Shown here: positions 1-45,862 of the stretch, piece after piece
How the letters are laid out: each line of letters opens with the position of its first letter
Numbering within the stretch: position 1 is the stretch's first letter
Assembly: GCA_965198115.1 (NCBI GenBank)
Contig: OZ240241.1
Coordinates: forward strand, 7,648,001-7,712,000
DNA: 64,000 nucleotides
Source of the DNA: Candidatus Latescibacterota bacterium
GTDB lineage: Bacteria; Latescibacterota; UBA2968
Direction of reading: 5' to 3'
Notes under the pieces: generated by a model
What the model saw: only the letters and a program-made list of their open reading frames with translations
What the model was told of the DNA's origin: nothing
Databases searched by the model: none
Position numbers and translations under genes: made by a program

Positions 1-2
1 AC

Positions 3-3000
3 CGTCTTCTCCGTGTTAACGTCACACCAGACAGCCCGACGGAAGCCCCGATCATCGAGCACATCCAGATGGTGGGCAACGACCTCGTCTCCGGTGCCGA
101 CGGCGACTCCTTCATCCTGTTCATCGATGACCCGCGATTCCGCGTGCGTGTCTTCGACCGGCGCATCGAGCCAACGCCTTTCCCTAGCGCCTACGTGCCG
201 GAAAATGCTCTGATCACGGGCCTCGACGGCTCAAGTCTCGATTTCGACGATCTGCGCGACGGCACGCGAATCGAAGTGATCGGGACGGACTCGGACGGCC
301 GTCTCACGGTTTCTGAAGTCCACGTCGTAGGCGGAAATGTCTTCGTGGGCGAAGGCGTCCTCGAGAGCATCGACGTCGCCAATCGCCTGCTCTTCCCCGC
401 GGCGGACCCGCCGCAGCATATCGATCGTCACGCCTTCATCGTCGATGCCTTCGGCAATCAGATCGATTTGGAGACAGCTGCACGTTTCATCGAGGAGAAT
501 GATAATCTGCTCCTCGTTGCCGAAATCAACCCGTTCGGTGAGGGGCTCGTGTCGCTCGCGTTCATCGACCCGAACTTTGGGCGTCCGCCAGGTCATAACG
601 AACAGATGTTCTGGACTGACCAGGTCGAAATCAACGTCGAACAGCGCCTCTTCATCTTCAGACAGGAAGGTCCCGTCCGTCTTGCCGATGATGCTGTCAT
701 CACCGGCACCGACGGCGAACCCCTGACCATCGAAGACCTCCTACCGGGCATACGTGCGTTCGTGCGAGGCGAGGAATTCGGCGAAGATGTCCTTATCACA
801 GCCATCACACTCATCCCCAACATCGATAGCGCGGACCTGGTCGCCGAGGTCGGAGACTTCGACGAGGACGGCATCGCGAACGATGTCATCGTCGAACTCC
901 GCGATCAGAACGGGAATCCGATCCAGCTTCCCCTTCGCATCTTTGTCGATTTCAACCATCCGTTCGAGACACGCTCCGGCCACATTCTGACCGACATACC
1001 GGCCGGTCCCCACGTGATTCGCCACGAGGTCGCCTCGAGGCCTGAGATTCACGATGAAGCACGCGTCTTCATAGGCGAGCGCGTCTCGACGTTGAGCGTG
1101 CTCGAAACGGTCCCCGCCGACGGAGCGACGGGTGTCCCCGTCGCAACCGACCTGCGCATTACTTTCAGCGAAGCCGTGCAGCAGTTCGGCGATTACGTTT
1201 CGGTCGAAGGCGACATTCATCCCGAACCCCTCACGCGTGACGAAGACATCGGTTTCACGCTGGAGGAGGAAGGCACCATCCTTGTCGTCCAAAACCTCGT
1301 CTTCGAGGAAAACACGACCTACACGCTCGTCATCTCATCCGCCACAGGCAGGGATGGTGGCGTGATGATCGACCCGATCCACGTTCAGTTCTCCACCGGC
1401 GAGAGCCTTCGCGAGCTGGGGAGCCTCACCGGCACGGTTACGCTGAACTCAGACTTGAGGTTCGTGGGCACGATCAGGCTCTTCAACGAAGAAGGCGAAC
1501 AGGTCCAGGAAGCACCGGTCTCCAGCTCGGGGAACTTCGTGTTCAACGCCCTGTTCGAAGGCACGTATCGCCTCGTCGCGGATGCCACGACCGAAGACGG
1601 TCGTGCCGTCAGCAGTGTCTACCACGATGAGATCGAAATCGGACCGGGCGAGGTGCTCGGCGGGTTCAACATCGTGCTCGAGCTTCCCGACGCGCCGGCA
1701 CCAGGCGGTGGTGAAGGAAATGAAGGAACGCTCGTCCAACTGGATCTCGACACACGTTCGGGCAACCAGGGTCTCGACAATGCGCGTGCGCTACCCGATG
1801 CGGATGTGAAGGTCACCGTTTACGCCGTAGACGTTCAGGACGTCATCGGCTACAACGTGTCTTTCGCCTACGATTCCACTGCCGTGTCCTTCGTCGGCGT
1901 AGACGAGGGGACGAGCGATGAAATCAACCTGCTCAAGCAGAACAGCGGTCTCGCCGTGACACTGCCGCCCATCGTGGGGGCGGGAAGCGTAGAGTTCGCA
2001 GGGGCGATTCTCGGGGCTGCCCAATCCCAGTCCGTTTCCGGAGAGGGCGTTCTGGGTGTCTTCCGATTCAAAACGAAAAACGACTTCGCGGCCCCGACGG
2101 AATTCCTCGTCCCGCGTGTCCTGCTTCAGACTTCTGCCAACGCCGACACCATCGACACATTAGCCCGGGCGGCCATCGATCTGGCCACTCAGCGTATTCT
2201 GCTCGGTCTCACCGCCAATCCCGATACGATTCGAGCCGACGGTCGCACGCGTTCGGCACTCAGGGTCGGTTTGAAGGATGCCGACAGCAATCCCATCCTC
2301 GAATCGACCTCGGTTCGCTTCGAAATCGTGACCGGCAGGGGCACGCTGGCACAGACCGAAATCGTCGCGTCCGGCGGCAAGGCCGAAGTCGATCTATACG
2401 GCAGCTCTTCGGGGTTGGTCACCGTCGAAGTCAGTGTCGACGGGGCGTCCCCTGAGCGTGTCAGCATCTGGCTCGAGGCGCCACCCGTCATCGGCACGGG
2501 TGCTGTCGGTCCGATCGTGCTCGACCTCGATCTCGAGGCCGGCGACCAGGGCCTGCGCGAAACCTCGAACCTCAACTCGGGTGACGAGGTGGCAATCGAT
2601 CTCGTGCTGACCGACGACCTGGCCGAGGGTCTATCCGGGTTCGAGATTCTCCTCCTCTACGACGAAACCGCCTTGAACTTCTCACGGTTCGAAATCGGCG
2701 AAGTCTTCGACGGTGCACTGCCGCTCACATCGACCGGGATCGACAGTCTGACGATCAGCGCGGCGATGCTCGGAAACACGACGACACGCCCCTCCGGTAG
2801 CCTCGGCCAGGTCGTGTTCGAGATAGGAGAAGGCTTCGGCGACGAAGTTTTCATTCGTCTCGACCGTGGCCAGCTCGGCGGCCCCGATGGCACCGTTCCC
2901 CTCGATATCGGACCAAGCGGGGCCACAATCCTCCTGGGTGGGCAATCTGCCGCCACGCCAGATTTCGATGGCGACGGAACGGTTGGATTCACCGATTTCG

Positions 3001-3821
3001 TCCAGTTCGCCGGAGCGTTCGGCTCTCGTGACGGAGACAATCTCTACGACGCTCGATTCGATCTGGACGGAAGCGGCGACATCGGCTTTCCCGATTTTGT
3101 CACGTTCGCCCAGGTCTTCGGCGGTCCAGCCTCGAAACGAACGAGGCTTGCCAAATCGGCGAGCACAATCGAGCTCCAACAGGTCACGCGGTTTGTCGAA
3201 GATGGCACCGTGGCACTCGACCTGAGCGCGTCCGGTGAGTTGGCGGGCTATGATTTGACCGTCGTCTACGATCCTGCGAGCGTGGAAATCCTCGGCGTGA
3301 CGTCAGAAATCGCGTCTCTCCTGTCCGCAGGGAATGATCCGGCACTGATGGAGGAGTTGACGCCCGGACGTCTTCGGATCACCGATTACGGTTCGGAGTG
3401 GTACGGGGAAGACGCCTTCATTTCCATCGTCGCACGTCCGATTGGCAACAGTGTGCCCACGCTGGACATCGTGGACGCGACGCTCGCCACGGAATCGGGC
3501 ATTCGAACAGCATCCGTACTGCACCAGATCGACGACCGCCCGACGGTGACCGAATTGGGGCGGAACTTCCCCAACCCCTTCAATCCAGATACGGTCATTC
3601 CCTTTGCGCTCTCCGAGGGTGGCCGCGTTCAGATCGTCGTCTACAACGTGCTCGGACAGGAAGTCGTCCGCCTGGCAGACGATCAGTACACAATCGGTCG
3701 TCACACCGTCGTCTGGAATGGGAAGGACGCAGTGGGCCGGTCAGCTTCGAGCGGACTCTACTTCGTTCGAATGGTCACCGCAGGGACCAAGGCTACGAGA
3801 AAGATGACCTTGGTCAAATGA
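3..3821 (+). CDS. Large multidomain surface/scaffoldin-like protein, 5'-partial: DUF5666-like repeats, SbsA Ig (Big_5), carboxypeptidase-regulatory-like, cohesin-like domains, invasin Big_1, dockerin-like EF-hand pair, C-terminal FlgD-Ig/T9SS-type sorting domain
   Basis: Frame is open from base 3. Motifs: ITGLDGSSLDFDDLRDGTRIEVIG and ITGTDGEPLTIEDLLPG; VLETVPADGATGVP..ITFSEAV; LDLDTRSGNQG and LDLDLEAGDQG ahead of cohesin-like YD..xL/V.F strands; DFDGDGTVGFTDF..FG..FDLDGSGDIGFPDF..FG; LGRNFPNPFNP..VYNVLGQEV..SGLYF. Confidence 0.85.
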   Translation, partial: RLLRVNVTPDSPTEAPIIEHIQMVGNDLVSGADGDSFILFIDDPRFRVRVFDRRIEPTPFPSAYVPENALITGLDGSSLDFDDLRDGTRIEVIGTDSDGRLTVSEVHVVGGNVFVGEGVLESIDVANRLLFPAADPPQHIDRHAFIVDAFGNQIDLETAARFIEENDNLLLVAEINPFGEGLVSLAFIDPNFGRPPGHNEQMFWTDQVEINVEQRLFIFRQEGPVRLADDAVITGTDGEPLTIEDLLPGIRAFVRGEEFGEDVLITAITLIPNIDSADLVAEVGDFDEDGIANDVIVELRDQNGNPIQLPLRIFVDFNHPFETRSGHILTDIPAGPHVIRHEVASRPEIHDEARVFIGERVSTLSVLETVPADGATGVPVATDLRITFSEAVQQFGDYVSVEGDIHPEPLTRDEDIGFTLEEEGTILVVQNLVFEENTTYTLVISSATGRDGGVMIDPIHVQFSTGESLRELGSLTGTVTLNSDLRFVGTIRLFNEEGEQVQEAPVSSSGNFVFNALFEGTYRLVADATTEDGRAVSSVYHDEIEIGPGEVLGGFNIVLELPDAPAPGGGEGNEGTLVQLDLDTRSGNQGLDNARALPDADVKVTVYAVDVQDVIGYNVSFAYDSTAVSFVGVDEGTSDEINLLKQNSGLAVTLPPIVGAGSVEFAGAILGAAQSQSVSGEGVLGVFRFKTKNDFAAPTEFLVPRVLLQTSANADTIDTLARAAIDLATQRILLGLTANPDTIRADGRTRSALRVGLKDADSNPILESTSVRFEIVTGRGTLAQTEIVASGGKAEVDLYGSSSGLVTVEVSVDGASPERVSIWLEAPPVIGTGAVGPIVLDLDLEAGDQGLRETSNLNSGDEVAIDLVLTDDLAEGLSGFEILLLYDETALNFSRFEIGEVFDGALPLTSTGIDSLTISAAMLGNTTTRPSGSLGQVVFEIGEGFGDEVFIRLDRGQLGGPDGTVPLDIGPSGATILLGGQSAATPDFDGDGTVGFTDFVQFAGAFGSRDGDNLYDARFDLDGSGDIGFPDFVTFAQVFGGPASKRTRLAKSASTIELQQVTRFVEDGTVALDLSASGELAGYDLTVVYDPASVEILGVTSEIASLLSAGNDPALMEELTPGRLRITDYGSEWYGEDAFISIVARPIGNSVPTLDIVDATLATESGIRTASVLHQIDDRPTVTELGRNFPNPFNPDTVIPFALSEGGRVQIVVYNVLGQEVVRLADDQYTIGRHTVVWNGKDAVGRSASSGLYFVRMVTAGTKATRKMTLVK

Positions 3822-36144: not shown

Positions 36145-36519
36145 GACGCGTTGACCGATGCGCTGTCCCATTCCGAATGGTGGATGCGAGCGGCTGCCGC
36201 TGACATTCTCGGCGACATCGGGGCTCCGGCAACGCCTTCGATCTCCGCGCTGACCGAAGCGATGCGTGATGACAGCGAGTGGGTACGTCGTAATGCGACC
36301 GAAGCGCTGGGCACGTTGAGAGCTAAATCAGCGGTTCCCGCGCTCGCCAGGGCGTTGTCAGATGAAAGTGACCGAGTCCGACATAACGCCGCTTTAACCC
36401 TCATCAAGATCGGCGCCCCGGCTGTCGTCGCCCGCACCGGGCTCACCCAAGCGCTCGACGATGAGAATCGTTATGTCCGAGCCCTTTCCTGCCTTGCTCT
36501 GGACATGACCCCTGGTTAG
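36145..36519 (+). pseudogene. HEAT/PBS-lyase repeat protein, 3' fragment
   Basis: LTDALSHSEWWMRAAAADILG, DDSEWVRRNATEALG, DESDRVRHNAALTL. Confidence 0.8.
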
Positions 36520-36708
36520 CCCAGATCTCGATTGTTCTTCACGCTTGTGTGGATCGATCAGAAACCGAGGCGCTCCTTAAGACCGTTGAATCAGCCCGTC
36601 TCGCCACGGATTAGCGGACCAGGTAAAGGCGGCCACGAGCAACGCGGCTGTTTCACATATAGACCGCGGGTCATCACCCCGGTCGTCACCGACCCGGATC
36701 GTACTGGA

Positions 36709-36803
36709 GCCTGTCCCGAGCGCAATCGAGGGAGCGTGGGCCACAAGCCCCCGCGGCGCGTGAGCGGGACTTTTTTGCTTCTCTTTTGGTCACAAAAGAG
36801 AAG
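36709..36803. repeat. REP-like unit plus structured T-rich hairpin element
   Basis: GCCTGTCCCGAGCGCAATCGAGGG (inverse relative of the 28157 unit); CTTCTCTTTT-GGTCAC-AAAAGAGAAG. Confidence 0.5.
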
Positions 36804-36868
36804 AACGGATAGTAACGCAGAAAGGGTTTGAGTATCGATATCCACTCTTCTGGTTGGAGACTCATTTC

Positions 36869-37743
36869 TCAAATGACCTGGTCCAGCGCCTTCATATACC
36901 CGATTGTCCAGCTTAACCCCGCCGCACGGTCTCCTGCGATCGTTGGGTAGTGTTCGGGATAGATCTGTCCTTTGTAGTCAATCTCCTTCAACGCTCTGAA
37001 CGTCTCCACCATATCCACTTCACCCGTCCCAAACGCGACCTCCAGGTAGCCTAACCCTTCCAGCCGTTCACGCACTTCCTGATCGACCGGACCACCCACC
37101 TGCGTCACGATGTCTCTGATGTGAACCATGAACGTCCGGTCGCCGAATGCCCGCACGGCGGTGCCCAGATCGTCCCCCGCCAACTCCGACTTGCCCTGGC
37201 AGAAAATCACCCCATTCGCCGGGCTGTCGACCTCCTTGAACAGACGCTCCATCGTCTCCAGGTTCCACAGGATTCGGTCAGGCCTGTGAAAGTGATGGGT
37301 TGAAACCTTGACGCCTTGTTCCTCCGCCACATCCGTCAGCTCTCGATAGTACTCCACGAGCCCTGCCCACAGACACTCCCGCTCCGCCTGGCCTTCGGGC
37401 ACGATTTCATTGCTCGAGTACAGATGGAGAAAGGGATGCCCGCTTTTCCCATCGCCTTCACGATACCCGTCATCACCGCCATCTCCTCGCCCCGTACTTC
37501 CGGATCCTTCAGTGCGGCGAGACTCGTACGCGGCGGCCTCAGCGAGGATAGCATCACGCCGCCTGCCCGATAGGTCTCCGCCACGCCAGCCAGGTCATCC
37601 GCATCCGGCACCTCACCGCCGTCCTTCGCCAGCTCCGAGGCCGAGTGAATGATGAAGTGGACATCGGAATCTGTGCAGAACGCGATGTTCTTCTCGTGGG
37701 CTGTCCCGAATGGTGCGAAAATGCCAATGTCGAGCATGGCCAT
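36869..37743 (-). pseudogene. Mannonate dehydratase/xylose-isomerase-like TIM barrel, frameshifted near 37420
   Basis: AEEQGVKVSTH, DSPANGVIFCQG, VHIRDI, GEVDM..YKGQIYPEH. Confidence 0.75.
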
Positions 37744-37889
37744 CCTCCTTGGGCTACTTCTGCTTCGATTGGGTCAATATATCTTCGCGGCTTCGCGCCT
37801 TGGTGTCTTCGTGATACTCCTCCCTGGTGTTCAAGACATCTATGTTGCCATGAACACGCCCCTTTGCCGATGCGACCACCACAACCGGG

Positions 37890-38801
37890 TCACCCCGCTA
37901 GCCTGGCGACCGCCTCGACATGCGCCGGCGAAAGACCACAACACCCCCCGATTCCGTTGATCTCTTCAGCAATCCACTGCTTACCGTAGTCAGCGAGCCT
38001 ATCGGGCGTGAGCGAGTCGTCAAAACGCCAGTTGGGCATCTCGAACGTACCCGAATCCGGGTACGCATAGACCGGTCCCTCGAAGTTCTCACGAATAGCC
38101 TTGATCGCATCCGAAACAAGCGGGCTGCCGGTGTGCATCACGCCGATCGCGGCGATCCCCGGCCGGTTAGCTGCATCCGTCAACTCGGAAAAGGGAATGT
38201 CCTGGCTCTGCGAAAAAGAGAGTAGCGATCCGTCGCCTGCGCTGCGGGCAGAAAGACCCACCCACACAGGGAGTCCCGTTTCCACGGCCGCCGTCAAGGC
38301 CAGTTCGATCCTGTGTGGCAGATACATCATCTCCAACAGGATCAGATCGACACCCTCCTGCGCCATGATCGAGACCATCTCACCGAACGTATCGGTTAGC
38401 TCCTGGATCGACGCCGACGGCGTTCCGCCGTAGCCCTCCGTCCAGTGGGACAGTGAACCCGCCACGGCCACACCCTCGACACCCGCTCGGTCGCGGGCTC
38501 GCTGAACCGTCTCGATAGCGGCACGATTCACATCGTAAACGCGGTCCCAGTATCCCGCCGCCTCCAGCATCGGCCGTGACGACGAAAACGTATTCGCCGT
38601 GACGATGCGAGCACCTGCCTCGATGTAATCGACGTGAATCTGTTCGAGCACATCCGACTGTTCGAGATTCGCCGTCGCGCTCCAGGACTGCTTGTCCATC
38701 GTCACGCCACGCCGTTCCAGCTCGGTACCGATGCCGGCGTCAATCACGATCAACTCGTTCGATGCGATGCGTTTTTCTATGGCTTCGTAGGACATAGTCA
38801 A
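37890..38801 (-). CDS. Homocysteine S-methyltransferase family protein
   Basis: IDAGIGTEL, IHVDYIEAGA..ANTF, VDLILLE, IGGCCGLSPAH. Confidence 0.9.
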   Translation of the reverse strand: MTMSYEAIEKRIASNELIVIDAGIGTELERRGVTMDKQSWSATANLEQSDVLEQIHVDYIEAGARIVTANTFSSSRPMLEAAGYWDRVYDVNRAAIETVQRARDRAGVEGVAVAGSLSHWTEGYGGTPSASIQELTDTFGEMVSIMAQEGVDLILLEMMYLPHRIELALTAAVETGLPVWVGLSARSAGDGSLLSFSQSQDIPFSELTDAANRPGIAAIGVMHTGSPLVSDAIKAIRENFEGPVYAYPDSGTFEMPNWRFDDSLTPDRLADYGKQWIAEEINGIGGCCGLSPAHVEAVARLAG

Positions 38802-38879
38802 ACCCAGTGTTCAGGAGTTCAGGAGTTCAGTGTTCAGGATAAATCACTCACAGTTCTGGTCATTACATCAAGCGATACG

Positions 38880-38993
38880 ATTGTCATCCCGGCATTCTGT
38901 TGAGCCGGGATCCATTTTCGCACCGTCACAGTCTGGCTATAGTGGTGCAGAGTCAAAATGGGCCCCGGCTAAAAAGCGTACCGGGGTGACAAT
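38880..38993. repeat. REP doublet (REPIN-like)
   Basis: ATTGTCATCCCGGC..GCCGGGATCCATTTT and the inverted copy AAAATGGGCCCCGGC..CCGGGGTGACAAT. Confidence 0.75.
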
Positions 38994-39015
38994 GTTCCTT
39001 TCCTATGCTCTATCT

Positions 39016-40513
39016 TCAATATTCAATGTCAAATTTCTTCAAAAGGAAACATCGGCTTACGTCGATAGACATAGTCGAACGTCCGCATATCCGCGGCAGT
39101 CGCACCCGTCGTGTTGACACGCGTATCAGTTTCGTGCAAACGGGCTCGTAGGCCGCCACGGGTGCGTGAACGCCCTTCGCCACGAGGATCTGAAAATCGG
39201 CGGGATCCAACCCGATGCTCGTCAACAACACCGAGACTCACCGGCACGGTCCGTCTCGACGTCAGACTAATCGTCAAGCCGGTATCCGTCACGACCACAG
39301 CCGTAGGCCCCATATCGAAATGTGTGTAACCTCCGTGACGGACCTCCGTCTCTTCGAACTTGCCGTCGTGCAGACTCTTGACGGTCACCGACGCCTCCAA
39401 AGGCTCGCCGTGGCGGTCATCCGTCTTCCCGCCCATCGTAAGCGTGACCTTCGCACCTACACCGGCCTCTCGCGCCCGATCCTGCGACTCCCGATCGAAC
39501 AGACAGACGTGGAGCCGTCGTGTCCCCTCGTCGATGGATCTCGTGGGCAATCAGCGTACTGTCCGCGGCTGACCCACCTCCAACGTTGTCGCCCATATCG
39601 AGCAGACAGACCGGCCCATCCTGCGTCACCGCCTGCTCGACGGCCTCAACCACCGTCGTGTACTCGCCCACGAAAGCTTCTCGATTCGCAAGCATATGCG
39701 CCGCCAGCTCATCCGCCAGTCGCTGAGCCAGATCGGATCGTCATCCGTCACCACGATTGCGGATGATCCCATCTCCTCAACATCCGCATACGGAAACCCG
39801 AGCACGATGCTGTTGGACAGAACGCCTGACTCGCTTAGCTGTTCATCCGCGAATTCATAGAGCGGTAAACACGGCCACTCCGATGTCAGTTGCCGCTTGA
39901 TGTTGATCCCAAAGGCAAGGAAAGACGCTCCTTGAACCGGTTTGATCTCCCCACGCAGGGTCCGGACGATCAGATCGACCCCTTCGTAACCTCGCTCCTT
40001 TTGGTCAAGATGCGGATTCGACCGATAGGCAATCGTGGCATCGCACGCGTCGACCATTCGCGCCGACAGATTGGCGTGGGGATCGATCACACAGACGATC
40101 GGGACATCAGCTCCGACCTCATCTCGCAACTTCGCAAGCCAGAATCCGTCCAGGTCTTGGTACGCCTCGCCTTCGCCCGCATTCGCCCCGTGCGGAGAAA
40201 CCAGGAAACCGTCGAGGGGTCCCGCCTGCGCCAACGCGACGAACATCATCTCGATCAACGTCTCACACGTCTCTTTCGTAATCGTGCCGGATGGCGGAGT
40301 CGCCGCGTAAAAAATCGGCACGGCTTCGGCGTCAGCTTTTTCCAACCCATCCAGGAACGCGGACATCTGGTGATGCCCACCCTCGAACGCTCCACGCACC
40401 GTTTCCCCGACGAGTAGACTGTCACGTCGAAACGAGTCGATCGTCGTCGGCGTCACCGCGAAGGTGTTCGATTCGTGCATCAGTGATAGGATTCCGATTC
40501 TCATATCACTCAC
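39016..40513 (-). pseudogene. M81/MlrC family metallopeptidase with several frameshifts
   Basis: MHESNTF, SPHGA, DPHANLS, YRSNPHLD, GFPYADV, DMGDNVGGG, VAKGVHAP across four frames. Confidence 0.88.
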
Positions 40514-40689
40514 CGGAAGTCTGATTCTTGTTCAGCTGCAGGACCATCATCGACCTGGCCAATCGCGACTTACCAAAACGTCCCTGCGCACAGCACAGGG
40601 ACGAGGATTCCGTGTTTTCAATAAGAAAGCGACCGTGGGTCGGAAGGATCTAAGGTTTCTGTACTGCCTCAATACTCGATTCTCGATAC

Positions 40690-42018
40690 TCAATCCTCGA
40701 TTTTGGCTTCCTCCACCGCCTTCCCAATCGCCTCCACCAAGCCATCGATGTGTTTTTCTTCTGTCGGCAGGCAGATCGCATTCATCGCCATGCCCTGCGA
40801 TAAATAGTACCCTTGCGTGATCAAAGACAGGAACACCGCCTTCGCCGTGTCCTTGTCAGATCGGGCCATATCGCGATACGTGCGCACCCGCTCCACCCCG
40901 AAGTGTATGCTGAACACGGACCCGGTCACGACGACGTGCGCGGTCATGCCGATCTTTTCGAACAGCGCATCCAGGCCTTTCTTGAGCCTGATGCCAAGAC
41001 CGTTCATATGCACGTGTGCCTCGTCCGTCAATTGCTCCATCGTCGCGAGGCCAGCTGCCATCGCCACCGCGTGCGAGCTGTGCGTACCGCTCTGGAAAAC
41101 CGTAGCGCCACCCTTCGTATTGTCCAACTGATCCATCACGTCTGCCCGCCCGCCAAAGGCCCCGACCGGAAACCCCCCACCGACGATCTTCCCGTAACAC
41201 GACAGATCCGGCTCAATCTCCATATAGCTCTGCAACCCGCCTCGGGCCTGCCGGAATCCGACGATCTCGTCGAAGATCATCAGCATCCCCAGTTCCCTCG
41301 TTATCTCCCACACGCGCCGGACGAATTCGTGTCGTTGCGGAATGATCCCCGCTTTTGGATCCATGATGACGCACGCCAGCTCGTCCCGGTAGCGCGACAG
41401 CAGCCGCTCGACGTTCTCATCGTCGTCGTAGGGCAGAACGACAACGTCTTCGTGTGCGCGCGGGGCCATTCCGCCGGCCGTCGGCACGGCGTTCGGCTCA
41501 TCGGCTTCGCCCACGTCGTCGAGCGACGGCGAAGTGCTGACCTCCACTGCGTCGTGGCTCCCGTGATAGCCACCCTCGAACTTGGCAATTTTCGGTTTCC
41601 CCGTGAACTGACGCGCCAGCCTGATCGCGTGCAGCGTCGCCTCCGTCCCCGAGTTGACGAATCGCACCCGGTCGAGAGATTTGACACGATCGCACATATG
41701 CTGCGCCATCTTCGTCTCGACCCCAGTGGGTCCGCCCAACGCGATCCCCTCGCTCAACTGCCCCCGCACTGCGACCACAACTGCAGGATGGTTGTGTCCG
41801 AGAACCTGTGCTGTATGGTGATTGCAGAAATCGATGTAGGTCCGACCATCCACGTCGTCCAGCTCACAACCGGACCCACGTCGCCACGTGATCGGATAGG
41901 GCGGATAGAAATACGCACCCTTCGACGCGCCCGCGTTGACCTCACGTCCCTCCTCGAACAGCTTCAGCGACTTTGGTGTCAGTTCCCTATATCGTGCTTC
42001 GATTGCCTTGATCCCCAT
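40690..42018 (-). CDS. Class III aminotransferase (glutamate-1-semialdehyde aminomutase-like)
   Basis: DVDGRTYIDF, LGHNHP, RFVNSGTEA, KFEGGYHG, IFDEIVGFR, YGKIVGGGFPVGAFGG. Confidence 0.9.
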   Translation of the reverse strand: MGIKAIEARYRELTPKSLKLFEEGREVNAGASKGAYFYPPYPITWRRGSGCELDDVDGRTYIDFCNHHTAQVLGHNHPAVVVAVRGQLSEGIALGGPTGVETKMAQHMCDRVKSLDRVRFVNSGTEATLHAIRLARQFTGKPKIAKFEGGYHGSHDAVEVSTSPSLDDVGEADEPNAVPTAGGMAPRAHEDVVVLPYDDDENVERLLSRYRDELACVIMDPKAGIIPQRHEFVRRVWEITRELGMLMIFDEIVGFRQARGGLQSYMEIEPDLSCYGKIVGGGFPVGAFGGRADVMDQLDNTKGGATVFQSGTHSSHAVAMAAGLATMEQLTDEAHVHMNGLGIRLKKGLDALFEKIGMTAHVVVTGSVFSIHFGVERVRTYRDMARSDKDTAKAVFLSLITQGYYLSQGMAMNAICLPTEEKHIDGLVEAIGKAVEEAKIED

Positions 42019-42080
42019 ATCCTCACCTCGGCCAGTGCAGGGACCTACTTTGGTCACTTGTACGGGTCAATGGTCACCGG

Positions 42081-42833
42081 TCAATTCAGTTTTAGTATCC
42101 GCTTCGCATTCTGCCCCAGCACCATCCGTTTCGCATCATCGTCGATATCCGCCGTAATGATCTTACCCAGCTGGGACCGCGGATCCATCAATGGGATATC
42201 CGACCCGAACAGCACGCGATCCGCGCCCGCCTCCTCCACGAGGCGCTCGATCACCCCCGGCTCCCTGAACGTCGAACACGTCTCCAGATACACATTAGGA
42301 TTCGCTTGGGCCGCTTCGATCGACTGCGTGCGATACGGCTCCGAATTCCCCGAATGACCGATCACGAATTGCACGTTCGGGAATCGCCCGGCGATCACGC
42401 CCACCTGCACCGGCTGACACGTCGCTTCCTGACCTGTATGCGTGATCAATGCCAGGCCTCGTTCATCCGCGAACCCGTAGATCGGGTCCCAGACAGAATC
42501 CGTCAACGGCCATCGCGAATACGGTGGATAGATCTTGATGGCCGGGAACCCCAGTTTATCGATCGATCGTTCGAGCTCAGGAACCATCCGTTCCGGCATC
42601 AGCGGCGAGACATACGCGAAACCGATGAACCGGTCCGGGTTCTTGGCCACGAAGGCCGCTGTCTCGTCGTTGCCCGTCGTCCCGTCAGGATGGAAGATGT
42701 TGAACAGACAACTCCGATCGATCCCCACCGCATCCATCGCGTGAAGGAACTGCGCAGAGTCGTCGTCCATCTCGTAGATGTCCCAACGTCCGGTGTGCCC
42801 GTGAAAATCGATGATTTCTTGGCCGTCAATCAT
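42081..42833 (-). CDS. Amidohydrolase_2 family protein
   Basis: IDFHGH, IKIYP, ITHTG, VIGHSG, RVLFGSD.P. Confidence 0.9.
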   Translation of the reverse strand: MIDGQEIIDFHGHTGRWDIYEMDDDSAQFLHAMDAVGIDRSCLFNIFHPDGTTGNDETAAFVAKNPDRFIGFAYVSPLMPERMVPELERSIDKLGFPAIKIYPPYSRWPLTDSVWDPIYGFADERGLALITHTGQEATCQPVQVGVIAGRFPNVQFVIGHSGNSEPYRTQSIEAAQANPNVYLETCSTFREPGVIERLVEEAGADRVLFGSDIPLMDPRSQLGKIITADIDDDAKRMVLGQNAKRILKLN

Positions 42834-42921
42834 TCTTTTTCGCCGTCAGAGGCGGCGCCTACCCCGCATCCTTCATCTCAGTGGCTGCCTGGTTTTAGCA
42901 TCTTCTCCAGACGACGTCCAT

Positions 42922-43706
42922 TCATTGCCCTAGTATCTTTTCCAAGTTCCCCGCACAAATCGCCGCCAAATCCTTCTCGTCAATGGACAAGTGATTCAGC
43001 ATATACAGCATCGGGCCCATCGCATACCGCGGGAAGTAGGATCCGTAGATCAGACGTTCGGCTCCGATCTCTTCGACGAGCCGTCCATCCCCCTCAGGTT
43101 CTCGTAACGGCTCAATTCGAGGACAGCGTGCGGCGGCGCTCGCAGCATCGGGCGGAGCACCAGACTGTGCGTGTAATGTGCGCCGACGAGGACGAGTCGA
43201 AGATTCGGATAATGTCGGAGAGTTTCGACGATCTCGGTCGATGGAGTGTCCGCCAGAGACATCCAGAGTGGAATCCTTTCGTCAACCAGCCAGGACAGGG
43301 CGTCCCCGTAAACCCACTGGACGAACGACAACCGTGACACCTCGGTGCTATGGAATCGAACGCTGGAAACGAGACCGTCAGCGTGCAGACCCGCAATGTG
43401 GCTGAGCGAATCGGCATCGGGCCCGATCACCTGCTGGGGGACGAGCCCGTTGTTCCCTTCCGTCCACCGCGCCAGCGATTCGTTTCCCCGAATCGCACTG
43501 ACGAGCTCCCCTTCGCAGGCATACACGACCGCTCGGTCGACCCCGTGTCGGTTCATCTCCGCCAGAAGCTGCTCGGGCCCTTCGTACGGGTAGGCCCGGT
43601 CCTTCCGGTGGCCGACCCCGATATTCGCGTCGAAAACGGCACGCGGGATTTGAAGCTCAGACCTGACATAGGCCACAAGATCGCCTTCAAACAGGCGAAC
43701 GTCCAA
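42922..43706 (-). pseudogene. Amidohydrolase_2-like protein, frameshifted near 43085
   Basis: FDANIGVG, EMNRHGVDRA; tail GAERLIYGSYFP..GNLEKILG is in another frame. Confidence 0.75.
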
Positions 43707-43823
43707 TAAAAGCTGCGCCAGGCTTCCAAATAACTGAGGCGCTTCTCAAAGAGAAACGCCCCAGCAGATCATCCTATCCTTCGTGTCTTCGCGCAGGAGC
43801 CTGCACTGAGCGGAGTGTGTGAG

Positions 43824-44475
43824 CTATCCTCCTCCAAACACAGTCGCAAATTGGAGAAAGTCCGCAAAATCGACCCGACCGCTCTCGTCCAGATCGAACA
43901 GCGCCTCCGTAGATCCGAATGCAGGCGCGAACAGCAGAAAATCCGCGAAATCGACACCACCGTTCGCGTCGAAATCACCAATCAGCGGGACATCAATAGC
44001 GGCGAGCAGCGACGCGATCGTCTCGCTCGCGCGTTCGATCTGGGGCTGACTCCTGGGGCTCTGGAACTGAAGAATCCCCTCGGGGTCCACGACCCAGAGC
44101 CATCCACCGCACCCTTTGCAAGCACACCCAGCGCCTCAGACGCTCTCATCAACAGCGGAAAACTGACCTGCGTCACCTCCTGGTAGAGCCTCAGCTGCGT
44201 CGCACTCCCGTTCCACACGTCCAGACCCAGCACCTGAACTTTTTGGGGGTTGTTGGCGTTCCAGATCTGTGTCTCTACGGACGGACCCGTCCCGAAGCAG
44301 AGGTGTCAGTCGTAGCCCATCAGGTAGAGAACAAGAACCTTGCCCCGGAACTCCGAAGGCGTATAGATCTCTCCATCCAGAGCCCGGAGGGCAAACTCAG
44401 GCACCGGCTCTCCGACATCAGCCATTAGCGGGTTCGCCGACAGGAAAACGAGGAACCAACCGTTTAAGAAACGCC
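43824..44475 (-). pseudogene. Secreted UxxC selenoprotein redoxin (TlpA/AhpC-TSA fold) fused to a dockerin-like EF-hand pair; start removed by IS256, one frameshift near 44100
   Basis: VGEPVPEFALRALDG..SEFRGKVLVLYLMGYD-TGA-HLC..VQVLGLDVWNGS..FPLL..WVVDPEGIL; GDFDANGGVDFADF..FG..FDLDESGRVDFADF..FG. Confidence 0.85.
44273..44302 (-). promoter_or_regulatory. Bacterial SECIS element
   Basis: Lower stem CUCUGC/GUAGAG, bulge UUCG, upper stem GGACG/CGUCC, apical loop GGUC starting 18 nt after the UGA. Confidence 0.8.
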
Positions 44476-45862
44476 GGTCAAGTCCCATAGTCAGTTGAAA
44501 CTCATCGGGCCCCGTAGTTTGGTCAGGCTCTCTTTTGAGCATTCTGTTCGTTGTCGAGATTCAGATCTTTGTTCAGTGCTTGCCTGAGTAGGGGAAGATG
44601 TTTGTATCCGCTCACGCGTCGCAGGCGAGGTTCGATGTCGAGGAGTGCGGCAGCCACCCATCTGTGTCTCTGGGGAGAGTTGTTCCAGCGTCTGACCTTC
44701 CGAGTGAGCTCGCCGGTCCTGCTGTTGAGGGCTTCGATGCAGTTGGTGGTTCGGAAGCTTCGTTTCAGGAATGGGAGCATACCCAGCCGGTGGAGGGTCA
44801 GGGTTTCCTCCAGGCCTTCCTCGAGGCTCGTTACGGCAGACTGATTCATCAGCTTCAGTTCGGGTTTAAGTGATTCGAGTGCGGCCTTTGCCTCCTCGTA
44901 GGTGTCGCAGTCATAGGCTTTCTGGAGCTTCCGTCGAACTCTTGGACGTTCCCTCTCCGGGAGATAGCTGACGACATTCTCGCGCTTGTGCCACTGACAG
45001 CGATGAACGCGCACATACCCTTTGAGGGCTTTGGTGACAGCACTGCGGAGCCCCTTTGAGCCGTCAAGCACAACGAGAAGGCCCTGGTCGTAGCACAGGC
45101 CTCTCCGGATGAGGTCTTGGATCAGCTGGCGGCAGATCCGTTCGTTCTCCGTCGCCGATTCGACGAAGCCCAGGGGGATCTTCTGGCCGTCCATCGTGAC
45201 CCCCAGAGCGATCACGATCTCTTCGTCGGCAAAGCTCTTTCCGTCAATGAACAGGGTCACGAAGCCGTAGTCGTCGAGGGGACGCTCCTGGAACTGCTTC
45301 AGCTTCTTCGCGGTGGCTTTGATGAACCGCCGCGAGACGGAGGACGCTGAGATACCAAACGCTTCTGGAACCGATTCGGCACAGGCCTTGTAGTTGCGGC
45401 ACGAGATCCCCTTGAGAACACGAAGCAACAGCCCCTCGTCCGTCTTCTTGGGCGTCTGTAGAGCCCGGTATGCAGCCAGGGAAACCTCTGCGTCGGCCTC
45501 GACGTCGCGCACCCGGGGAACGTCTAACGGGAGCTTCTGGTCCATCAGATACACGGATCCCTTCTGGCTTCCCCACCGACGATGCGCCTGCTCCGAACCT
45601 TTGCGCGCATACCGAACGCCTGCGAGCTGCTCGACCTCCTGCTGGAGGAGGTCTGCCACTGCCTCCAGACCCAACGGGATCAACGCCTGGATCACCGACA
45701 AACGCGTCTCCAAATCGATGACATCGCCCTCAACCTTGACTTCACCATCGCCTACAAATAGCTTCTCCATCTGGGCTCCTTTCTTACGGGTATACGCTCC
45801 TACACGTCTACCCAACGTAAGTTTGGAGCCCTCTAAGTTTCAACTACGATAGGCACAACACC
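44476..45862 (-). mobile_element. IS256-family element (type A, full length)
   Basis: IRs GGTCAAGTCCCATAGTCAGTTGAAACT and AGTTTCAACTACGATAGGCACAACACC; no matching TSD. Confidence 0.9.
44523..45770 (-). CDS. IS256-family transposase
   Basis: VPRVRD, GISCRNY, LFIDG, VLDGSKGL, RCQWHK, TTNCIEALN. Confidence 0.93.
   Translation of the reverse strand: MEKLFVGDGEVKVEGDVIDLETRLSVIQALIPLGLEAVADLLQQEVEQLAGVRYARKGSEQAHRRWGSQKGSVYLMDQKLPLDVPRVRDVEADAEVSLAAYRALQTPKKTDEGLLLRVLKGISCRNYKACAESVPEAFGISASSVSRRFIKATAKKLKQFQERPLDDYGFVTLFIDGKSFADEEIVIALGVTMDGQKIPLGFVESATENERICRQLIQDLIRRGLCYDQGLLVVLDGSKGLRSAVTKALKGYVRVHRCQWHKRENVVSYLPERERPRVRRKLQKAYDCDTYEEAKAALESLKPELKLMNQSAVTSLEEGLEETLTLHRLGMLPFLKRSFRTTNCIEALNSRTGELTRKVRRWNNSPQRHRWVAAALLDIEPRLRRVSGYKHLPLLRQALNKDLNLDNEQNAQKRA

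Follow-up and report, generated by a model that had tools for sequence, protein, structure and literature searches.

Layout of the redoxin locus

The window analysed here is a stretch of 64,000 nucleotides from the genome of a bacterium of the FCB phylum Candidatus Latescibacterota (G000), which consists of one contig (C1) of 8.43 Mb. All features of the redoxin locus at window positions 43824-44488 are located on the minus strand (Table 1). When the in-frame TGA is read as selenocysteine (U), the frame beginning at 44488 yields ...GKVLVLYLMGYD-TGA-HLC...VQVLGLDVWNGS...FPLL, in which a signal-like stretch is followed by a redoxin, and the codon context is YD-U-HLC. A duplicated DF..F..FG module is present downstream in a reading frame other than that of the redoxin. 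The initial annotation had proposed the hidden UxxC read-through, the signal-like segment, and the double module, and each of these has held up. The signal-like segment aligns with the complete signal peptide of a paralog, the same column in homologs is occupied by TGA or Cys, and the double module is recovered as a dockerin fold by sequence match and by predicted structure.

Table 1. Features of the redoxin locus and the adjoining insertion sequence, in window coordinates.
Feature	Position	Strand	Basis or remark
IS256-family element	44476..45862	-	Transposase 44523-45815, Pfam Transposase_mut E 9e-39; abuts gene 5′ end
IS end with in-frame ATG	44476..44488	-	First four residues IS-derived
Rest of predicted signal peptide	44420..44475	-	Aligns with complete signal peptide of paralog
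Redoxin domain, AhpC-TSA/ResA-like thioredoxin fold, N-terminal three quarters	44100..44419	-	Pfam PF00578 29.8 bits, cut-off 26
In-frame TGA, putative selenocysteine, UxxC position one	44306..44308	-	95 TGA / 6 Cys in 101 loci; selABCD
Resolving Cys of UxxC	44297..44299	-	Cys in 101/101 kept loci (loci filtered on Cys)
Predicted bacterial SECIS hairpin	44273..44302	-	-12.7 kcal/mol; loop GGUC 44287-44284, 18 nt after UGA
One-base deletion (frameshift)	44099..44100	-	Pairwise alignment with paralog; shifted frame stops at 43984-43982
Last redoxin strands, helix, and linker, out of frame	43980..44099	-	In frame in paralog and homologs; homolog model E115-119, E124-130, H133-139
Type II-like dockerin module with two predicted calcium-binding loop-helix repeats, out of frame	43827..43979	-	Sequence and predicted fold
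Original stop codon TAG	43824..43826	-	ORF reading

State of the window copy

An IS256 element has inserted about five codons after the native start of the gene without creating a target duplication. There are 66 near-full-length copies of this element in the genome, 31 of them at ≥97%, and 22 of these 31 have an 8-9 bp duplication that the window copy lacks. Because the duplication is missing, upstream DNA carrying the native promoter, the ribosome site, and about five codons must have been lost, and neither the displaced 5′ end nor a matching target duplication is found at the other IS256 copies of the genome. The earlier claim that the start was lost to IS256 is therefore borne out. In addition, the end of the IS element supplies an in-frame ATG through which a signal-like N-terminus is restored.

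A frameshift had also been noted near 44100, and alignment with the close paralog places it precisely, with one base missing between 44100 and 44099 at a site that is not a homopolymer run. The initial annotation had recommended checking reads at this position. Contigs of two public runs (X1 and X2) carry the deletion and match the window over 43400-44303 with 0 differences and 0 gaps, and they contain the paralog as a separate sequence; these contigs come from one sample that is possibly the source of the assembly, and so are not independent. A long-read error is an improbable cause of the deletion. As judged from a homolog model, the frameshift takes away the last two strands and the last helix of the redoxin together with the dockerin.

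The paralog is about 83% identical, is located at G000:C1:5.47-5.48 Mb, and has its redoxin and dockerin in one frame, but it is split by a 1.3-kb IS that is represented by 75 copies over 1 kb in the genome. Three further family copies are frameshifted or truncated, such that five of the six copies in this genome are broken. The member with an intact frame (G000:C1:120986-122275, 429 aa) includes one TGA and two Ig domains. It is improbable that the window copy is nonetheless still active, with the IS end serving as a new start and the frameshift reflecting an assembly error or being bypassed. The signal-like N-terminus regained from the IS end would fit with continued activity, as would the 21 synonymous versus 11 non-synonymous codon differences from the paralog, which indicate past selection. 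These points are countered by the deletion in X1 and X2 (subject to their shared origin) at a site lacking a homopolymer, by the breakage of five of six copies in an IS-rich genome, and by the absence of any promoter-like site in 43600-44800. Neither a sigma-70 promoter nor a terminator pattern was detected around the gene. It is very likely that this copy has become a pseudogene.

The genome is heavily laden with IS elements. An 8-kb block containing an aminotransferase, amidohydrolases, and the redoxin (window 36361-44476) is duplicated at G000:C1:5469589-5480859 with 79-87% identity. An amidohydrolase-like gene downstream of the redoxin (window 43050-43706) looks frameshifted, since an additional base is present at 43635 in the contigs of the paralog. 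Two IS256 copies, at G000:C1:5000385-5001772 and 376894-378281, appear to have swapped flanks, with the left flank of each matching the right flank of the other, which is a sign of IS-mediated rearrangement. A 3.76-kb duplicate at 99.8% (G000:C1:1133078-1136839 and 3200507-3204268) carries DUF6029 and a frameshifted family member.

An in-frame TGA conserved at the active site

The initial annotation had asked whether homologs carry TGA or Cys at the first position of the UxxC motif. A survey of 106 rows, from which we removed two that were short or had no second Cys as well as three distant Bacteroidota proteins, left 101 loci in which this codon is TGA in 95, Cys in six, and Trp in none. Cys members are not under-sampled in this survey because its 60 regions picked from match lists include all five stop-free rows of the family profile search. 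Sec and Cys paralogs adjoin each other in three genomes (L028, L098, and L127).

The genes selA, selB, selC, and selD, whose presence had likewise been proposed as a check, are all found over cut-off in G000. Those for selA, selB, and tRNA-Sec are clustered at G000:C1:3585307-3589736, and selD carries its own TGA. Among 132 genomes of the class, selA is present in 125. A selA match is lacking in two genomes with TGA copies, G020 (91% complete) and G050 (80% complete), both of which are fragmented.

Gene callers truncate members of the family at this apparent stop. The databases hold the Sec forms only as fragments starting after the TGA (e.g. P0152, P0104, and P0142), and a word-index protein search returned one match, also a post-TGA fragment. 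Such records are what would be expected if the TGA were a true stop, or if it were read as Trp or Gly under another genetic code. However, this reading is already contradicted by several sequence features and has only a minute chance of being correct. A single TGA occupies one column in the 95 loci and aligns with Cys in the other six, the frames remain open for 100-1600 residues past it, Trp is encoded by TGG elsewhere in the family genes, the paralog gene ends in TGA, and selABCD are present. Given the TGA/Cys column, the SECIS-type hairpin described below, and the selenocysteine machinery, selenocysteine is almost certainly inserted at the in-frame TGA, and the gene family very likely makes an exported UxxC selenocysteine redoxin.

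The SECIS-type hairpin

The predicted hairpin is the minimum-energy fold of its region, and forms a lower stem (44302-44297/44278-44273) and an upper stem (44292-44288/44283-44279) capped by the GGUC loop. According to the available text of PMC13188914, the bacterial SECIS consensus comprises a loop of 3-9 nt, an upper stem of 4-16 bp, a G within the first two loop positions, a spacing of 16-37 nt, and an MFE ≤ -7.5. The window hairpin agrees with this model on every count, with a loop of 4 nt, an upper stem of 5 bp, G as the first loop nucleotide, a spacing of 18 nt, and an energy of -12.7 kcal/mol, as the initial annotation had maintained. Its remark that the loop resembles that of E. coli fdhF can be made stronger, since both the GGUC loop and the 18-nt spacing are identical. 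The selD gene of G000 has the same GGUC loop at 17 nt.

Support for the hairpin comes from codon-level tests, whereas the folding z-score, RNAalifold, and covariation give nothing beyond chance. By itself the window hairpin does not exceed its dinucleotide shuffles in stability (z about -0.2, with 75 of 200 shuffles folding as well), RNAalifold does not recover it and predicts another fold, and its covariation does not exceed that of shuffles (60 of 500 as high). In comparison, 89 of 95 Sec loci have a G-loop hairpin of ≤ -3 kcal/mol after the codon, versus 49 of 285 control windows from the same genes, and this hairpin outperforms recodings with synonymous codons (p≤0.1) in 59 of 95 versus 29 of 285, where all of these statistics are drawn from related loci. 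The codons that form the stem and loop are nearly fixed and other Gly and Pro codons vary: the Gly codon of the loop is GGT in 46 of 51 cases, and other conserved Gly codons are GGT in 3 of 51, 19 of 43, and 6 of 38.

Conservation of the hairpin is restricted to one part of the structure. Four pairs of the upper stem are kept in 31-34 of 34 rows, and a G-loop hairpin is present at the same place across the family. The lower stem (CUCUGC/GUAGAG), with 50% of its cells paired, is not conserved. In family f3, hairpins of different sequence are found at the same distance from the codon, and a weaker hairpin persists in four of the six Cys members (mean -3.8 versus -7.2).

The redoxin family

A profile search with the redoxin finds the family in at least 123 of 168 genomes of the phylum and at least 108 of 131 other genomes of the class, the latter divided by family as 30 of 30, at least 20 of 22, 3 of 3, and at least 55 of 76, in each case among the matches listed. 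A scan with a single protein for related loci recovered eight. Members share an arrangement of signal peptide, redoxin, a spacer region (absent in some, otherwise up to about 13 Ig domains, or leucine-rich repeats), and a tail, and 95 of the 97 that are long enough to test have a hydrophobic N-terminal stretch.

The domain belongs to PF00578 and has a thioredoxin fold extended at its N-terminus, with scores of 29.8 bits for the window fragment and 28.7-56 bits for seven homologs against a cut-off of 26. The modelled structure of a Cys homolog is a match to 2ls5 and to ResA, with TM of 0.81-0.87. At the position of the ResA proline, the 101 loci have mainly E (36), D (22), or H (17), and Pro is not among the six commonest residues. 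With this proline missing before the last strand, classical protein-disulfide exchange is not assured. Assignment to the strict TlpA/ResA subfamily was rejected on the grounds that the ResA proline is absent and that the ResA NCBIfam model scores at most 64 bits versus 170. Peroxiredoxins are defined by a P-x-x-x-T/S-x-x-C site and a catalytic Arg. This assignment was rejected as well, because the family has an invariant Gly three residues before U, because the column that follows the Pro position does not contain Arg, and because peroxiredoxin models score far under their cut-offs. No NCBIfam selenoprotein model reaches its cut-off on the redoxin, the best being TUGYCR with 22 bits versus 100. 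OS_HP2 and TUGYCR were both discarded as names, since they match only under cut-off and OS_HP2 does so on the Ig spacer.

In a quick tree built on 128 columns and containing many open forks, the tails cluster by lineage (18 changes versus 46 when shuffled) and Cys members are nested among Sec members; the window row carries its frameshifted end in this tree, from which no direction of change or transfer is drawn. Two loci (L104 and L109) have the Sec redoxin fused to a beta-lactamase-fold domain plus a T9SS tail. Another Sec member (L157) with a T9SS tail and a different hairpin is found in another phylum, in a record titled Deferribacteres bacterium.

The dockerin tail and its alternatives

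The best PDB sequence match to the tail profile is the type II dockerin 2y3n_B (E 2.7e-11). The tail model, with pLDDT 97, has the same entry as its first-ranked Foldseek match (TM 0.89, rmsd 1.1), and dockerins make up the top 15 of 16 rows in VIA (best Z 7.4, rmsd 1.6, 50 aligned). Thus, both the duplicated calcium-loop/helix repeat and the dockerin fold are present, and by sequence and predicted structure the tail of the family is shown to be a dockerin. The window module itself scores under the cut-offs of PF00404 (Dockerin_1, 14.4 versus 22.9 bits) and NF041540 (dockerin_GC, 18.3 versus 29); one homolog passes that of NF041540.

Among the 101 loci, the tail is a dockerin in 65, a T9SS-type tail with the NxPNPF motif in 22, SWG-type in three, and absent or cut in 11. 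The dockerin forms come from families f1, f2, and f4, with one from f3, and the T9SS forms come from f3 and one other phylum. A type A T9SS sorting domain is absent from the window copy and from the dockerin forms. It is recognized by motif in 22 Sec loci, and four of the four Cys relatives tested exceed the TIGR04183 cut-off. The best 150 matches among 1.84 billion representatives include 68 with a T9SS-like motif, seven with a dockerin, and 75 with neither by pattern, and none contains U or X. On some redoxins and cohesins (L107, L110, L133, L183, and L194; P0050 and P0105), a short C-terminal S/T-W-G-x-x-K tag replaces the dockerin or CTD and is possibly another sorting signal.

Cohesins and genome-wide use of the two tails

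Dockerins are present in 61 ORFs of G000, where 44 of the 63 matches are C-terminal, eight N-terminal, and 11 internal. The dockerin-tagged ORFs include S8, M10, and M28 peptidases and beta-propeller, FG-GAP, and Ig proteins in a scan of 40 ORFs. A cellulosome was rejected as an explanation, given that no glycoside hydrolase family was detected at E≤1e-6 in these 40 ORFs, 37 of which are from the 61 with a dockerin. The arrangement is predicted to work like a cohesin-dockerin display system rather than a cellulosome. The genome has 12 Pfam cohesin matches, and its dockerin-tagged ORFs outnumber its cohesin matches by 53-61 to 12-24. Cohesins of the candidate adaptor and cassette proteins match solved cohesins. 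Proteins with T9SS tails often end in dockerin-cohesin-CTD, and many dockerins are in the same chain as a cohesin, where the pair may be used within one chain.

Eight dockerin-rich genomes (G000, G002, G011, G018, G035, G039, G042, and G058) encode proteins of 250-350 residues that consist only of a signal, a cohesin, and a CTD. In G000, this frame has 288 aa and no dockerin (G000:C1:1278187-1279050, L204; relatives L200-L203, L205-L208, and L210), and its product is the best candidate for an adaptor. The predicted docking on a surface scaffold is backed by the existence of cohesin proteins with T9SS tails in this genome. SprA and PorV are detected over cut-off in G000, as is a PorU-like C25 protein that remains under its cut-off, and DsbD is present. 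At one end of the window (1-3818; G000:C1:7645438-7651818, plus strand) lies the end of a 2127-residue frame with Ig domains, which includes a cohesin (2505-2942), a dockerin (2940-3134), a second cohesin (3159-3542), and a T9SS tail (3567-3806). Its product is a candidate scaffold.

The balance between the two tails is reversed between lineages. In nine genomes of f1, f2, and f4, the dockerin/T9SS-tail counts are 53/19, 43/10, 120/16, 36/13, 46/18, 50/16, 105/19, 59/20, and 64/29 (ranges 36-120 and 10-29), whereas in ten genomes of f3 they are 19/87, 26/83, 5/104, 5/102, 9/45, 13/88, 8/66, 23/92, 9/80, and 11/56 (ranges 5-26 and 45-104); these are 19 picked genomes of the class, four of the large counts are lower bounds taken from the best 150 scored candidates, and f3 dockerins are perhaps under-counted by a profile built from f1, f2, and f4 sequences. 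This reversal represents one or two evolutionary events among kin, and not 19 independent points. Three genomes of other classes are rich in CTDs (dockerin/CTD 27/93, 0/47, and 1/22). Cohesin cassettes accompany the dockerin in 21 of 22 genomes, and the sole genome lacking dockerins also lacks cohesin matches.

Genes near family members

In 38 of the 68 genomes in which both are listed, a DUF6029 gene and a family member lie no more than 4 kb apart, whereas the two are not adjacent in the other 30; a neighbour scan added eight cases. No DUF6029 gene is found beside the window copy. A WCxPC TlpA is beside DUF6029 in all six loci read. The TlpA-DUF6029 pair often adjoins the Sec redoxin, and a PP-loop (TilS-like) gene is next in many relatives (L255-L266; L029, L030, L035, and L041). 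The available text of PMC9603273 likens DUF6029 to a Wzi-type outer-membrane barrel. A recharge line from DsbD through TlpA to this barrel is a lead from gene content rather than a result.

A model for surface display

Our preferred reading, to which we assign a probability of roughly 0.6 from sequence and modelled folds, is that a class-wide exported UxxC redoxin with a C-terminal dockerin is clipped onto cohesin-T9SS proteins for display at the cell surface, with the window copy likely dead. In this scheme, SelB would almost certainly insert selenocysteine at the UGA by using the in-frame hairpin, and the cleavable signal peptide would, with high probability, direct export across the inner membrane. 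The dockerin tail would then probably load calcium and bind a cohesin of the same cell. Since the putative cohesin partners carry T9SS tails, the complex would end up outside the outer membrane, a step we regard as somewhat favoured. Binding would occur before or after passage across the outer membrane, on a CTD-bearing adaptor or scaffold, and the spacers of up to 13 Ig domains seen in relatives would fit a stalk. Most tentatively, the selenolate might reduce disulfides or oxidants at the surface layer and be recharged through DsbD, TlpA, and the DUF6029 outer-membrane barrel.

One alternative would dispense with cohesins, in that the dockerin-like tail might itself be an export or sorting signal, acting as one more kind of T9SS tail or as a label that commits the protein to a different route. 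The tail takes the exact place of the T9SS tail in the redoxin family and is C-terminal in 44 of the 63 matches of G000, dockerins outnumber cohesins, and several types of T9SS tail are known (available text of PMC10202324). However, 19 matches that are N-terminal (8/63) or internal (11/63) are difficult to reconcile with such a signal, the tail is predicted to fold as a dockerin, and cohesin cassettes occur in 21 of 22 genomes and are missing along with the dockerin in the remaining one. On this evidence we consider a stand-alone signal unlikely.

The redoxin could also be a periplasmic TlpA/ResA-like disulfide reductase that is fed by DsbD and tethered by its dockerin to a periplasmic partner. 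Here the dockerin forms do lack a T9SS tail, DsbD is present in G000, the fold is nearest to ResA and 2ls5, and reductant would be supplied more easily inside the cell. Yet the same domain bears a T9SS tail in f3 and in the Cys relatives (four of four tested over the TIGR04183 cut-off), is separated from its tail by up to 13 Ig repeats or by leucine-rich repeats, and shares its dockerin with S8, M10, and M28 peptidases and with beta-propeller, FG-GAP, and Ig proteins. A periplasmic location therefore seems to us equally unlikely.

The display model can be extended to the proteome, although we hold this extension to be doubtful. Three Latescibacterota families may have swapped the T9SS C-terminal signal for a dockerin on most of their surface proteins, which would piggy-back on small cohesin-CTD adaptors for exit or anchoring. 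Such hitch-hiking type IX secretion would include the first T9SS-dependent selenoproteins, recharged over the outer membrane by DsbD, TlpA, and DUF6029.

Relation to known systems

The available text of PMC13188914 (Table 1) catalogues UxxC thioredoxin-fold selenoproteins as Prx-like thiol:disulfide oxidoreductase (PF00578), redoxin family protein (PF08534), and thiol-disulfide isomerase-like (cd02966). The present family shares a PF00578 domain, a UxxC motif, and an in-frame SECIS with the selenoproteins described there, but is distinguished by its signal peptide, by its Ig spacers, and by a tail that is either a dockerin or of the T9SS type. The terms 'signal peptide', 'T9SS', 'dockerin', and 'Latescibacter' are absent from the main text of that paper. 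Fold (TM 0.81-0.87), CxxC-type site, and export signal are shared with TlpA/ResA/DsbE proteins (ResA 1su9; B. thetaiotaomicron 2ls5), whereas G-x-x-U-x-x-C in place of W-C-x-x-C, the absence of a proline at the ResA position, and scores far below the ResA/TlpA cut-offs set the family apart.

Display of a thioredoxin-active protein by a T9SS tail has a precedent in HBP35 of Porphyromonas gingivalis (PMC2907840; a T9SS-displayed Cys thioredoxin also in PMC5445135). Compared by its description in the available text, HBP35 is a Cys enzyme with its own CTD and, unlike the family here, has no Sec and no dockerin. For Ca. Stygibacter (Cloacimonadota, FCB-related), a cellulosome-like system with a CTD-bearing scaffoldin and dockerin-tagged signal-peptide enzymes has been inferred (available text of PMC8542988). 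That system, the type II pair 2y3n, and NagJ-NagH (2ozn) have dockerin and cohesin folds in common with ours. In contrast to known cohesin-dockerin systems, the cargo here is a redox selenoprotein along with mostly non-carbohydrate proteins, the cohesins are in short cohesin-CTD proteins and dockerin-cohesin-CTD cassettes rather than in a single long array, and dockerins trade off against T9SS tails at the level of whole genomes. Type B T9SS cargo relies on PorP/SprF helpers (available text of PMC10202324). The proposed export or anchoring through a dedicated helper would be similar, but the helper, compared by description, would be a soluble cohesin-CTD protein and not a barrel.

We found no description of a dockerin-tagged UxxC selenoprotein in the open papers searched; members may be listed under generic names in subscription papers or in supplementary tables of selenoproteins. 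Open literature on Latescibacter with selenoprotein, dockerin, or type IX secretion likewise yielded nothing on this family. What is new here, from comparison of genomes, is that in relatives a T9SS sorting domain takes the place of the dockerin on this redoxin and that the genome-wide dockerin and T9SS counts flip.

Implications

The window copy, as a decayed duplicate in all likelihood, is of value only as a pointer to its family. Beyond the initial annotation, the analysis contributes the breadth of that family, the swap between dockerin and T9SS tails, and the in-frame ATG from the IS end. It adds a probable exported selenoprotein family, represented in databases by fragments alone, and suggests that bacteria may carry out selenium-based redox chemistry outside the cell. 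The exchange of tails amounts to an experiment of nature on the sorting of surface proteins in T9SS-bearing bacteria, for which a 52-residue dockerin and a 140-residue cohesin form a small testable pair. In dockerin-rich genomes, small cohesin proteins with T9SS tails would lend their cargo an export route or an anchor.
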